Assembly (NCBI GenBank): GCA_038087875.1
Contig: CM075991.1
Span: 12,030,001-12,094,000, forward strand
Origin: Malacoraja senta
Lineage: Eukaryota
Length of the DNA: 64,000 nt
Direction: 5' to 3'
The notes under the pieces: model-generated
Databases searched by the model: none
What the model saw: the letters and a program-made list of their open reading frames with translations, nothing else
What the model was told of the DNA's origin: nothing
Position numbers and translations under genes: made by a program
Part shown: positions 4,966 to 58,790 of the stretch, in pieces
How positions within the stretch are numbered: position 1 is the first letter of the stretch
Layout of the letters: each line of letters opens with the position of its first letter

Positions 4966-5185
4966 TTGACACAAAGTGCTGGAGTAACTCAGCGGGCGTC
5001 AGGCAGCATCTGTGGAGAACTTGGATTAGGTGACGGTTCAGGTCAGGGCCCATCTTCAATCAGACTGAAGAACGATCCCGACCCGAAACGTCACCTAATC
5101 CATGTTCTCCGGAGATACTGCTTGACCCGCTGAGTTACTCCAGCAGTTTATGTCCTTTTGTGTAAACCAGCATAGCAGTTCCTTG
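4966..5185. mobile_element. Inverted pair of Penelope-like terminal repeats
   Basis: gacacaaagtgctggagtaactcagcggg...ggtgacg, followed by CTGAAGA...GAAACGTCacc...cccgctgagttactccagca as the reverse-complement arm. Confidence 0.75.
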
Positions 5186-5862
5186 TTTCCACAATTATAA
5201 TGTGCCTGGAGAATGTGCTCTAAATACACAGGAACAGATGATGATTCACATCACTGGACATGTCCATCATTCTATTCCCCTAGTGTGCATTCAAATATTC
5301 ATAGGGCACAGTACATCGACACAGTACAAAGACCCCCTCCCCCCTCCAGTCCTATCATACATTCTCAAAATCTCCGTGCTTCAGGTCTAACCAACTATTA
5401 CACATCTGGTTTTGTTAACATCAGAATGATGTTGAATCTTCATTAATTTAGCATAACTGAAGAATTTCAAGCTTCCAGATTATTTGCTACCATAAAATTA
5501 TTTCAAAAAGAAAGCTTTGCTTGATCAAACTGGAATTGATTTCTGCACGCTTGGTTTGTCTAAGTGAAATAAGGTTTGTCATCAAAGCCACATACCATTG
5601 TAGCCTATACCCTTTCAGTACTGAACCACAGAAATTTTACGGAAAGATTTTAACATCACAAAAACTTCTAACAACCCATCCTCTTCCCTCTGAAAAAGAA
5701 CTTTGTAGGATACCCAAAGCAGAGCGTGTCAGTAAAATGGAAACATACAGCACTCCCGCTAACTAACCACTCACTGAGATTCCTCTCTAACATATTACCA
5801 GTTATTTGAACATTGATACCCCCCACCTTACTACAAAATAGAGGTACATATTGAAGTCTTAC

Positions 5863-5959
5863 CAGACGAAGGGACAGTTAGTGCAGAGACACCATAGTAA
5901 GTGAAGGCTCCATTATCAAACTTCAGACCCTCCTTGCCAATTTCCACCTCCACGCGCCC
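5863..5959 (-). CDS. CNNM3: CNNM3-like exon 5
   Basis: [32 protein letters not shown]. cag| and |gtaaga, 97 bp, same length as the CNNM4 exon. Confidence 0.92.
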
Positions 5960-7294
5960 CTGCTCATGAAACAAGGTGGTCCACTTTATTATCATGCTAA
6001 ATACCAGTGCAACATAAAGCAATGGCAACTAATTTAAGGTGAACGGGCCACATTTGAATTAGAAACACGTACAAAACACATGGACAAAAATTAAAATCAA
6101 ATTACATAGATTTACCAAGACCACCGCAAAATTAATGCTGCACTGAACAGTCTGTCTGGATTTTAGTACTCAGATATGCAAAGAGATATAGAGCGTGACG
6201 CGTGCATCTTTCTGCGGGGATAGGTAACAACCGCATGCATTGTGCACGTTCCCCCACAAGCTGCCACCAACAGGAATATCACAGCTCACGATCTTAAGCC
6301 CCAAGCGCAAGTGAACAATGGTCACTGGAATACCAAATTTCTCTTGTCACTCGAGTTCCTTTAAAAAAAATTTCAGAAGCATAACACAAACTATTATATT
6401 GATCTTCTTCCTTGTATTCTCAAGCACACCTATTGCTGTAACAACAGCCTTTCATATCTCATTTACATCCTCAGCTTTGACGTGCAAGTTTGATGCTTCT
6501 TCCTTCTATCCATATATCTGAACAAATGTCTTTTAAAGTCCAATTGTATCCACTTCATCAGCTCCCTCTGGCAGCTAATTCCAAATACAGACGACCTCGG
6601 TGAAAAGGTTACAGCCAGAACTTTCTTCCCTATCACCTTAAGCATATGCTCTCTGGTTTTAGAATCCTCTACCCTAGAAAAAGACTGATAATTCACTTTA
6701 TCCATGCCCCTCATGATCTTCTGCACCTCATTACAATTGTCCTCAGACTTCTACGCCCCAAAAAAGAGTCAGTCTATCCAACCTCTCCCTATAACACAAC
6801 CCCAACATCCTGATAAATCTCTACTGCATCCTTTCCAACTTAATTACATCTTTTCTATAGCTGGACGAGCAGAACTGCACAGATTATTCCAGGTATGATC
6901 TTACCAATAACTTGCACAACTCGATCCTGATGTCCTAACTTTTGCTCTCAATCGCCTTTTCAATAAAAGCAAGTGTGCCAAACACCCTCTTCACCACCCT
7001 GTCCACCCTTCTCACCTCTTTAACTCCCAGATCGCTGTTCCACCACACTCTACCTGCCCTGCCTTGGAGAGTGTGACATATCAAAATACAACACTTTACA
7101 GTTAAAGTTTTAAAAGTTTAAAGTTAACTTTGCCATCCTTGGCCCATCTTCCCAACTTATCCAGATATATAATTGAAAGCCTAGAAAGGTATTTGTGAAG
7201 GACTCAGATCAGGGTTATCCAAGTGCAAGCAATTTGGTATGAATGTTAATTCTTTGCTTTGTCTTCAAGAGCAGAGAGCAGGAATTAAACCCAC

Positions 7295-7464
7295 CTGCAG
7301 CACAAGAATGAAGTAATCAACTGGCTGATTCCGTTGGTACAGGTAGTGCTCTGGAGCCAGTTTATCATTTTCATTAAACTTCACCTCCTGGTTGACACTG
7401 GACTGCTTGAGGAGATGAAGAAGAACGCTCTCAGAGACCCTCGAGGGGTTGAACAGCTCCACCT
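7295..7464 (-). CDS. CNNM3: CNNM3-like exon 4 (CNBH domain)
   Basis: [57 protein letters not shown]. cag| and |gtgggt, 170 bp, same length as the paralogous CNNM4 exon. Confidence 0.92.
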
Positions 7465-56420: not shown

Positions 56421-57510
56421 ATTCATTTGTTCTATATCTTAGTTTAGTTTTGTTTGTTGTCACGTGTACTGAGGTACAGCAAAAAGCTATTTGTTGCATT
56501 CCCCTACTCTGGGTAAACGACTGTGCATCTATTCCTATCATGATCCTGGGTGCCTGATCCAGCAGCTCCAGAACAATCTCGGCTCAATCAGTGGTCTACT
56601 TTAACTACACCCAGCCTGAGTGAGTGACTCATTCATACCTTGGGGCAAACTGTTTTGTACATGAATTAAAAGTAGAAACAACTTGATTGGATGGTCTTAT
56701 CCAGTCTGAGACTTCAGCGATAAGCTGCCATTGGTGAATAAGGACATTATTATTGAATAAACCAGTTTTCTTTGAAGGTTCAAAGGTATTTTATTGTCAC
56801 ATGTACTAATTAAGGTAAAGTAAAACTCAATTTACCACACAGTCATACTAGAAAAAGCACCAAGACACACAACTACACAAAACAATTACATAACTACTTT
56901 AGAATGTAAATTCAACTTGTTGAAGTGGAAAGATGCCTTGAAGGTGTGGCAGCTTAGACAAAGAAGAATGAACTGCAACAAAATAGATAGAGCTATTAAA
57001 GAGAGCTGAGTCAAGGGTTATGGGGAGAAGGCAGGAACGGGGCACTGATTGTGGGTGATCAGCCATGATCACAGTGAATGGCGGTGCTGACTCGAAGGGC
57101 CGAATGGCCTACTCCTGCATCTATTGTCTATTGTCTATTGTAAAACACTGGAGAAGGTGTTTATGTGCGTGTGTTTAATATTTGGACTCCTTTTCAATAC
57201 TAAGGACAGGTTAATTGAATGATCAAAACTGAATATTCCATCATAATTGAATGATCAAAACTGAATATTTCTCATAAATCTGCAATATATTTTTTTCTTT
57301 AGAAATAAACATTATAACGTGTTCCAGCCTATTAATTACTTTCTGGTCTCCTTTCTTATGTAAAAGAGGCCTGCAATGTGCATTCTGAAAATAACAATGA
57401 GATAACAGATGTTTAAGAAAGAACTACAGATGCTGGAAAAATCGAAGGTAGACAAAAAAGTTGGAGAAACTCAGCGGGTGAGGCAGCATCTAAGGAGCGA
57501 AGGAATAGGC

Positions 57511-57538
57511 GACGTTTCGGGTCGAGACCCTTCTTCAG
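57511..57538 (-). ncRNA. Minimal hammerhead ribozyme core in a Penelope-like repeat
   Basis: Core identical to 44571-44598. Confidence 0.65.
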
Positions 57539-58645
57539 ACAGATAATCTTTTTTAATTACCTAAAATCAGTAAACTTGTTTGAAACCAGCTTCTCTGTTA
57601 GTTTCTTTACTTTTTGGTTATAAAAATAGAAATGGAAAACAATGATTAAAGTTTGTTGTAACCACAACTTTAATATGAGGCCTTTAACCAAAGGAGAGCA
57701 ATGAAGCAACATTTGATGTAGAGCTACAGAGGATATTAGAAAGGATGACCAAAATGTTGATCCAAGAGATAGCTTTAAGAAACATCTTAAAAGAGTCTAA
57801 GGAAATTGGGTATTTGAAGATCATAGCCTAATACCTAAGAATATAGTAAGAATATAAAAACATAAGAATTAGGAATATGATGAGGTCATCCTGCCCTTTG
57901 ACCAAATTGTGAAGCCAATGGAAAGAATATAGATGGATGGGGAGGGAGAGGGGTGAATGGATGCAAGTCCAGGTGGGGCACAAGGAAGAGGAGGGTGGGT
58001 GGGGAAAGAAGGGTTGTTTGTCGGTAGTTACCATTATAAGCATCCCTAAAGGTTTATTAAACCATTATAAGCATCCTTATATTTAAAATAAATTTATTAC
58101 CCACAGCAAATAATAATCTCTAACTAACCAGCCATTCAGAAAATAACTCTTCCACCATGTTCAAAGCTCTTCAACCCAGTTGGTTCTTCTGACCCACAGA
58201 GTGCCAGCTATTGTTTTCTCACTAATTCCATTTAAAAGTACCTGCACAAGCAACTTTATTACAGTCACATCCTGAATACTATTGGATAGGTAACATTTAA
58301 CTGTAGAAATCAAGTACTAGTTAGAAGCAAAACTGTGTTCCATGTAGTTATTAAACATAATTAAAGAGAGCATGTGCATCAGCACTAGAATTAATTTAAG
58401 TGGTTTTAATTTGACCCATTTCCTTGAACATCGTCTGCTTTGATCTGTCCTTTTCACATCTTACCCTTCAATATTTCTAGTCTCCCTCTCCCCTGACTCT
58501 CAGTCTGGACGAGTGGGCGGGACATGGGTAGAATGATGGACGCTGGAGAGGACCAATCATCGGGCAGGGTTTCCGGAGCGGGCGGGACTTGTGTCGTGGG
58601 CGGGTCTCGACCAGAAACGTCACCTATTCCTTCTCTCCACAGATG

Positions 58646-58740
58646 CCAGTATCTTTGATGCTGCCCAGTATCTTTGATGCTGCCCAGTATCTTTGATGCT
58701 GCCCAGTATCTTTGATGCTGCCCAGTATCTTTGATGCTGC
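58646..58740 (+). repeat. 19-bp minisatellite (5 units) inside a Penelope-like short repeat
   Basis: Unit cagtatctttgatgctgcc repeated. Confidence 0.85.
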
Positions 58741-58790
58741 CTCACCCGCTGAGCATCTCCAGCATTGTTTGTCTCCCTGGGATTTGGGTG

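Follow-up and report, generated by a model that had tools for sequence, protein, structure and literature searches.

The 64,000-nucleotide stretch of Malacoraja senta DNA analysed here (the window) contains a CNNM4-like gene on the minus strand, with exon 1 at 53629-54747, exon 2 at ~37547, and intron 1 extending over about 37548-53260. It also holds 37 fragments of a single repeat module of ~110-150 bp, three of which carry a complete minimal hammerhead. The pattern CTGANGA-N5-30-GAAACGT matches six times in the window, compared with 0.05 matches expected from 100 shuffles. The intact cores that a preliminary description placed at 44571-44598(-), 57511-57538(-), and 45486-45513(+) are exact in position, and each has a 4-bp stem II and the sequence ACGU. 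The first belongs to a solo pseudo-LTR (pLTR) fragment at 44518..44603(-); positions 44510 and 44621 carry a 10-bp direct repeat, TATTATAGAT, and a cut is predicted after the GUC at 44571. This copy lies in the sense orientation in intron 1, as had been described for one of the two perfect minus-strand copies, while the other, in a solo pLTR fragment with a tail at 57409..57542(-), is upstream of exon 1. The third core is in a solo pLTR fragment at 45482..45591(+), antisense in intron 1, that belongs to subfamily D, the youngest-looking one.

Ten further sites had been listed as variant or decayed cores, and all of them exist, but the putative core at 37219 reads as a chimera. It lies in a pLTR fragment at 37219..37314(+) within a 16-bp target-site duplication (TSD; 37200/37316), and a short inverted tail arm, fused there to stem II, is the likely source of its CUGAAGA. 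Several of the other sites are solo fragments: 32150..32250(+), with ACAU instead of ACGU in the core; 22976..23126(-), with a tail and the cut site GCC (23086); 52623..52729(-), sense in intron 1, with a core broken at 15.2, where 52697 reads AAGUU; and 48424..48526(+), with a decayed core that has lost G12. A fragment at 58602..58646(+) begins at stem II and lacks CUGANGA, and a diverged relative at 26241..26269(+), missed by the profile, has a CUGAUGA core with A-U at pair 10.1-11.1. The remaining sites are in head-to-head inverted pairs. The pair at 4965..5187, with TSD CAATTATAAT at 4956/5192, has a tail on one arm and a core at 5065-5092(+) with a damaged stem II (2/4 pairs), and the pair at 33109..33353, with a 14-bp TSD at 33108/33339, likewise has a tail on one arm and a damaged core at 33185-33212(-) (stem II 2/4 pairs). 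Two neighbouring pairs occupy 14050..14424, with a 15-bp TSD at 14050/14200 and with cores that are lost or decayed, the one at 14310 being without CUGAAGA. Another pair, at 27821..27977 (14-bp TSD at 27819/27962), has a tail on one arm and no hammerhead. At 63382..63710, an inverted tail arm (63382-63427(-)) is fused to a decayed piece of the parent ORF (63430-63710(+)) that retains Zn-finger/GIY-YIG sequence, with tblastn E-values of 7e-10 and 9e-8.

The motif is a minimal, dimer-type hammerhead, as first described, with a CUGANGA ... GAAA ... NUH core and no intramolecular helix III. In the modal letters of all five subfamilies, the palindromic 15.2-16.2 is ACGU, the unpaired nucleotide between 9 and 10.1 is A, and pair 10.1-11.1 is G-C. 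The suspicion that helix I is weak was correct: of 57 long copies, 48 have 2 bp and none has more than 3. Stem II, however, has 4 bp and a YUCG/CCCG tetraloop rather than the 5-bp pairings proposed previously, and the AGCCC seen at 45486 is most plausibly a UUCG altered by CpG decay. The proposed covariation of stem II is weak: across 16 hand-picked rows a two-sided change occurs in one of six pairs, and 298 of 500 shuffles reach the same. Changes inside the family are one-sided wobble changes and CpG decay. Genome-wide, the double-change pattern has 887 matches, mostly an A.A mismatch lineage that is a single inverted copy embedded in a different repeat (both flanks are shared by 18 of the 20 retrieved) and is therefore neutral on covariation. 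The A-U doubles among the 887 are what decay by two transitions would produce. Conservation of the core relative to its flanks was upheld: the catalytic positions are invariant in the modal letters of the five subfamilies, which show five differences, each structure-neutral, and the upstream DNA has diverged. TCAGT is invariant in all five, whereas 12 of the 15 positions next upstream differ. An Rfam search, suggested earlier as a check, found no hammerhead family match at E<=1. When CUGAUGA was used to look for further stem II families, 1,612 matches emerged, and of the 100 listed nearly all were of the same family.

The very high abundance anticipated for the repeat is borne out by 43,687 complete motifs in the genome and about 730,000 fragments, corresponding to 3.8% of sampled DNA. 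Exact 28-mers number 18,728 genome-wide, and reversed controls gave 0 for both 28-mers and complete motifs; in a 1.398 Mb sample there were 525 matches, with 0 in the reversed control for the first 799 kb. The Penelope origin was supported, with RT and GIY-YIG found directly upstream of the hammerhead core, but the module is not a separate non-autonomous family: an autonomous RT-EN Penelope-like element (PLE) carries it as its pLTR, both after the RT-Zn-GIY-YIG ORF and ahead of the ORF start. In long RT-EN loci the module lies ~90-110 nt or less past the ORF end. Partial tandems with the order EN-3'UTR-hammerhead-tail-ORF start occur at loci L251, L253, L260/263, and L266-268, and the first in-frame ATG was seen ~35 nt beyond the tail. 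The single ORF has an RT, a CX4CXXC linker, and GIY-YIG at its C terminus, with Pfam E-values of 1.2e-5 for RVT_1 (below the gathering cut-off) and 8e-5 for GIY-YIG (above it). The two domains occur together in one 572-aa frame, where the Pfam scores are below the cut-offs. The linker motif, which is shared with Nematis, makes it likely that the parent is of the Neptune type. A coding role for the module was considered and rejected: some subfamily A copies have an open frame that leads from the core on into the ORF; in others it is closed or shifted.

Among core copies, 145 of 202 begin no more than 18 nt upstream of the core, compared with 16 expected, and these starts cluster at TCAG-T-CTGA, a self-complementary sequence on the core's 5' edge. 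Products of 110-150 bp beginning at the hammerhead edge are in extreme excess. There is no pile-up at the GUC cut site, where the start rate of 0.0048 per nt equals background. We found no published counterpart for copy starts at the core's 5' edge rather than at the cleavage site, and consider this a lead. At the other end there are two 3' end sites, ~35 nt apart. Many copies are flanked by target duplications of 9-16 bp in AT-rich surroundings, with TSDs in 21 of 95 short copies versus 1.2 in shuffled pairings, and the ends of solo copies are ragged across ~6 nt. Splicing of a host exon into the CAG was rejected, because the left flanks consist of target DNA that recurs as a duplicate on the right. 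Only one of six distinct near-full-length copies starts at the edge, versus the 145 of 202 short ones (p=0.01; read by eye); that near-full-length copies mostly read through the edge speaks against simple run-off from one start site.

Paired copies are oriented head-to-head in 88 cases and tail-to-tail in 6. Exactly one tail is present in 44 of 59 head-to-head pairs and two tails in 2, compared with 9.8 expected (p=0.002). Solo copies have a tail in 106 of 284 cases (37%) and single pair arms in 41% (p=0.57), whereas fold-back of one cDNA predicts tails in 78% of solo copies. Perfect palindromic junctions centred on TCAG-W-CTGA account for about 24 of the 100 matches listed (by eye), and stem II and ACGT are further sites of inverted junctions. 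The one-tail pairs fit two cDNAs primed from both target strands, and inverted pLTRs with a single tail have been reported (PMC3846280, PMC8557442).

Together, we regard it as highly probable that the repeats are 5'-truncated pLTR fragments of an autonomous PLE that retain its minimal hammerhead, which is likely inert in dispersed copies. In the parent RNA, cutting by the hammerhead is predicted to require a dimer and the help of protein. During insertion, the RT-endonuclease would nick both target strands, and cDNA synthesis would begin internally on the RNA, from the two tail sites, with uncut RNA as the template. Two internal RT starts, extension on both strands, an uncut RNA substrate, and protein-assisted cleavage have been described (PMC11167929). 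Synthesis of cDNA would mostly halt at TCAG-T-CTGA, and the cDNA end could then join the target through 1-3 nt of microhomology, producing a solo copy, or join a second cDNA through the self-complementary sequence, producing a head-to-head pair.

The most likely reason for the halt, although it carries slightly less than half of our confidence, is that the RNA template begins at TCAG-T-CTGA, at an initiator-like start. An extra G at the start, the signature of a cap, is found in 2002 of 4957 cases genome-wide; many of these are inversion junctions, and the signal is no more than suggestive of a cap trace. Poly(A) RNA reads of another organism (one run, 82% likeness) have no pile-up of starts, ends, or intron joints, and could not exclude them; this missing start pile-up, and the about equal representation of both strands, lend the initiator start no support. 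Alternatively, and with a lower but appreciable probability, the 5' pile-up could reflect a block of reverse transcription at the pyrimidine tract and CAG, by a retained-intron acceptor or a bound protein, rather than an RNA start. A pyrimidine tract and YCAG do directly precede the core in all subfamilies, the ORF stop of subfamily A reads AG/GTAG, the D. virilis intron ends at helix I (PMC4209133), and near-full-length copies mostly read through the site. However, a GT donor is present only in some subfamilies and is absent from subfamily D, and spliced copies gave 0 matches in the genome and 0 among 100 listed from a further search. This genomic absence is weak evidence because PLEs retain introns; no spliced joint was present among the joints listed from the poly(A) RNA reads of another organism. 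It is improbable that the element's dimeric endonuclease sets the 5' end by cutting newly made cDNA duplex at TCAG-W-CTGA. This 9-bp palindrome does not vary among subfamilies, the Anolis protein is a predicted dimer (PMC11167929), and perfect palindromic junctions are common, but the only PLE enzyme tested prefers ATT in AT-rich DNA (PMC11167929), junctions occur at stem II and ACGT too, and solo ends are ragged. A rather speculative extension of the preferred reading is that the hammerhead region acts chiefly to join and pair, rather than to cut: a protein dimer would prime twin cDNAs, one per target strand and tail site, which would both halt at the ribozyme's 5' edge and anneal at TCAG-T-CTGA, stem II, or ACGT. 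Head-to-head repeats with exactly one tail would then be explained.

The copies were at first described as retrozyme-like, and a non-LTR retrozyme-like non-autonomous family spreading via self-cleaved circular RNA would be short, non-coding, hammerhead-bearing, and very abundant, as these copies are. A pLTR origin has been reported for retrozymes (bioRxiv 10.64898/2026.07.22.740005), and the larger share of short copies in subfamilies B/C (60/75) than in young subfamily D (12/27; p=0.001) would fit secondary spread from solo copies. Nevertheless, we consider this origin very improbable: only 7 of 209 core copies are in tandem, with one short tandem array (L197), the hammerhead is minimal rather than canonical type I (2-bp helix I, no Rfam match), ends at the cut site are absent, and every subfamily includes long copies with the parent 3'UTR. 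It is likewise very improbable that CNNM4 pre-mRNA is cut at a consequential rate by the sense copy at 44571. Its core is complete and in the sense orientation in intron 1, but it needs a partner, it is the one intact sense core in the gene, where the other sense copies are broken, and its helix I consists of one U.G and one G-C. The latent cut site suggested earlier is further weakened by a hammerhead fold probability of <=0.05 in the local context; predicted stem II probability is about 0 because GAAGG pairs with downstream CCUUC. No molecule ending at this site was present in RNA reads of another organism, and the copy is one among 43,687 equivalent ones.

About 4% of this vertebrate genome thus consists of Penelope end fragments, with >43,000 complete ribozyme motifs. 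As these fragments are abundant and invisible to Rfam, finding such a motif in an intron is no ground for assuming host regulation. Insertion footprints can be counted because copies are so numerous: ends keep away from the cleavage site and gather at the ribozyme's 5' edge. In inverted pairs the tails are mutually exclusive, and the counts yield predictions for an existing in vitro system. The function of the hammerhead in endonuclease-bearing PLEs has been stated to be unclear (PMC8557442), and a joining or pairing role, if true, would offer a testable answer.

The motif resembles the minimal hammerheads of metazoan PLE pLTRs, as presented by Cervera and De la Pena (2014, PMC4209133), in its type I core, the extra nucleotide 9/10.1, G10.1-C11.1, the palindromic 15.2-16.2, and the absent helix III loop. 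There, too, motifs are mostly dispersed and single, from truncated elements, some on opposite strands; activity is low; and the hammerhead-bearing pLTR at both ORF ends is already published. According to that source, which names no cartilaginous fishes in the parts consulted, stem II has 7-8 bp in Schistosoma rather than the 4 bp found here, helix I, 2 bp here, has 4-5 bp in Schistosoma and 2 bp in D. virilis, and motifs number about 4,000 in coelacanth and 9,000 in Xenopus, compared with 43,687 here by a different search method. Non-LTR retrozymes (PMC7229834; bioRxiv 10.64898/2026.07.22.740005) are likewise short, non-coding, hammerhead-bearing, and pLTR-related, but form 150-450 bp tandem arrays with canonical active hammerheads and circular RNAs, whereas the copies here are solo or inverted and minimal. 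In Poseidon PAc of Anolis (PMC11167929), as here, two 3' ends lie ~35 nt apart, flanks are AT-rich, and genomic and RNA ends are absent at the hammerhead cut site. The PAc ORF starts in the hammerhead, whereas the core here has CUGAAGA and the first ATG follows past the tail; the clade probably differs. The parent element shares with EN+ PLEs of the Neptune and Nematis types (PMC8557442) a single ORF with RT, a CX2-5CXXC linker, and GIY-YIG at the C terminus, as well as partial tandems, an inverted 5'-truncated copy, and a 30-40 bp tail at one end, and differs from them by its extreme excess of 110-150 bp products from the hammerhead edge.

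The repeat family is genuine and very abundant, and belongs to an already known kind of element. The three complete minimal hammerhead cores at 44571-44598(-), 57511-57538(-), and 45486-45513(+), together with ten variant sites, lie where the preliminary description had placed them, and a loose hammerhead pattern matches the window six times, compared with 0.05 matches expected by chance. Searching with a profile of 30 genomic copies identified 37 fragments in the window (3,502 bp), three of them with the core complete and a stem II of 4 bp; Rfam gave no matching hammerhead model for the window cores. 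The window corresponds to G000:C15:12030001-12094000 of a 1.94 Gb assembly. Across this assembly there are 18,728 occurrences of the exact 28-mer and 43,687 of the complete motif with its 2-bp helix I, against 0 for the reversed controls. A sample of 140 evenly chosen 10-kb stretches, 1.398 Mb in total, contains 525 fragments that make up 3.8% of the DNA; this extrapolates to about 730,000 fragments genome-wide and, with the count of complete motifs, bears out the very high abundance proposed initially.

Long copies carry, 5′ of the core, an open reading frame (ORF) with reverse transcriptase (RT) motifs, a CX4CXXC linker, and a GIY-YIG endonuclease end, which upholds the suggested Penelope origin. 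At first look, an RT query gave 15,832 candidates genome-wide. Among the loci listed from 20 stretches surrounding long RT frames, the hammerhead-bearing module follows the ORF by ~90-110 nt wherever the ORF end is present, and in at least L251, L253, L260/263, and L266-268 a second module lies 5′ of the ORF start, itself preceded by an endonuclease end and 3′UTR. The module at both ORF ends is the partial-tandem pseudo-LTR (pLTR) of Penelope-like elements (PLEs). The sequence of the CX4CXXC linker, a motif characteristic of Neptune or Nematis in the accessible text of PMC8557442, suggests that the parent belongs to one of these clades. A decayed piece of the parent ORF is found in the window at 63430-63710. 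The 209 core-bearing copies comprise 95 solo short copies, 50 head-to-head copies, 57 running into the 3′UTR, and 7 in tandem. The short repeats are thus truncation products of an autonomous RT-endonuclease element rather than the retrozyme-like family first proposed. Tandem retrozymes were found in the one chondrichthyan sampled, according to the accessible part of bioRxiv 10.64898/2026.07.22.740005; related literature, likewise available in part, includes PMC7229834, PMC6765202, and PMC6155905.

Several fetched loci have other arrangements. L196-L199 (G000:C2090, the end of C4, and the start of C9, contigs of the same assembly) contain tandem ~5.4-5.8 kb units that are 93-97% alike, each containing the Penelope RT-endonuclease part together with LINE pieces; several units are close to contig ends, and L197 holds a short array of the module. 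A 1318-codon open frame at L187:1621-5574 joins a LINE (APE, RT) in frame with the Penelope RT-endonuclease, with the LINE resuming past the module, and this fusion is likely a chance insertion. In L269-L288, one inverted pLTR pair was amplified as a passenger of another repeat, with shared flanks in 18 of the 20 loci.

The insertion footprints are the only part of this analysis that a specialist might pursue. The 3′ ends of copies fall at two positions about 35 nt apart, in agreement with the prediction from two internal RT starts in the accessible text of PMC11167929. Target-site duplications of 9-14 bp occur in 21 of the 95 short copies, against a null expectation of 1.2, and in eight copies the duplication adjoins element position C3 and ends in T, GT, or AGT, letters that also match the element. 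At the 5′ edge, for 145 of the 202 non-tandem copies that carry the core, the upstream 18 nt match no other copy, compared with 16 calculated from the upstream truncation rate, a comparison that is conditional on the 202 having been chosen for their core. The base composition of these 145 copies is at background by position -7, with the steepest fall between -3 and -4. Among all 525 fragments the cut-site start rate equals background. Contigs and RNA reads from other organisms show loose ends at the same positions as these copies. A literature search covering few subscription papers found no published report of a pile-up at the hammerhead 5′ edge.

Our first choice for why cDNA stops at this edge, held tentatively, is that it would run off at an RNA start within TCAGTCT, and we prefer this reading because the motif presumably fits the initiator consensus and because an internal promoter is known from D. 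virilis Penelope. That promoter is described in the accessible text of PMC2377424. Against run-off at an RNA start, five of six near-full-length copies read through the 5′-edge site, and 11,650 poly(A) reads, about 6% of one run from another organism, show neither a start pile-up nor a strand bias. Ranked after it are a block of reverse transcription at the pyrimidine tract/CAG, which is a lesser possibility, and an endonuclease cut that sets the 5′ end, which seems quite improbable. At L253:800-980 and 1242-1293 (endonuclease end and ORF start), poly(A) reads lean 1.7- to 3-fold toward one strand, which would be antisense if the usual library convention holds.

Head-to-head pairs number 88 and tail-to-tail pairs 6, with junctions that, by eye, lie at TCAG-W-CTGA, stem II, and ACGT. 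Both arms could be scored for the tail, an optional 3′ segment, in 59 of the 88, giving 44 pairs with one tail, 13 with none, and 2 with both. The tail is present in 106 of 284 scorable solo copies (65 more were unscorable), a frequency in line with single arms of pairs but different from what fold-back predicts. A single tail per insertion, like palindromic junctions, is already described in the available portions of PMC3846280 and PMC8557442, where the interpretation is that antisense RNA serves for self-priming or that an endonuclease resolves the structure; the same limited search, with few subscription papers, found no published report of twin priming for PLEs.

A CNNM4-like gene has exon 1 at 53629-54747(-), with CNNM Pfam domains and a match to solved CNNM4 (E 8e-84, from a search that gave no other CNNM paralogue for comparison), and exon 2 starting near 37547. 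The 44571 copy does lie in sense orientation in intron 1, as initially described, and the 57511 copy lies upstream of the gene. A functional cut of CNNM4 pre-mRNA by the 44571 copy is unlikely, and the remaining sense cores inside the gene (52697, 33185, 23086) are all broken. On the minus strand, several one-base frameshifts in exon 1 (53260-53720) and one in exon 2 (~37470) interrupt an otherwise conserved protein; these are likely assembly indel errors, which therefore affect any reading of ORF integrity, and the gene could still be a pseudogene. A second CNNM gene at 12233-13801(-), with exon 2 near 10547, lies in tandem downstream and is presumably CNNM3-like by synteny. Elsewhere in the window, an inverted repeat of 200 bp (31133-31332), near-perfect and GC-rich, has purine/pyrimidine ends and is possibly a MITE; its only Rfam match is structural and sub-threshold. 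A GC-rich 61-bp unit carrying GGGCGGG and CCAAT-like motifs is repeated six times in tandem (58731-59206), beginning directly after pLTR fragments, and a LINE whose APE endonuclease and RT are spread over several frames occupies 60176-62944(-).

Five subfamilies, separated by short diagnostic motifs that leave 53 of 209 copies unsorted, retain every catalytic position. Differences among their modal letters are confined to two loop positions and to 11.4 (U-A to U.G), H17 (C to U), and 1.1 (U-A to U.G). The core is conserved relative to its upstream flank, where 12 of 15 positions 5′ of TCAGT vary among modal letters and the 3′UTRs of long copies form 12 clusters; downstream, the tail region is likewise fairly conserved. 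The stem II covariation first described is weak: in 16 hand-picked rows 87.5% of cells pair, but a two-sided change occurs in one of six pairs, a result that 298 of 500 shuffles reach. ViennaRNA predicts a stem II probability of ≤0.05 in the local context of four window copies, with GAAGG predicted to pair with a downstream CCUUC in three of them. Helix I, suspected to be weak, is 2 bp. In the accessible text of PMC11167929, the hammerhead of an Anolis element is cleaved only with protein, and uncut RNA is used for insertion. PLE minimal hammerheads show no cleavage as monomers and low cleavage as dimers in the available part of PMC4209133, and every sequence feature given for them there is present in the module's motif.
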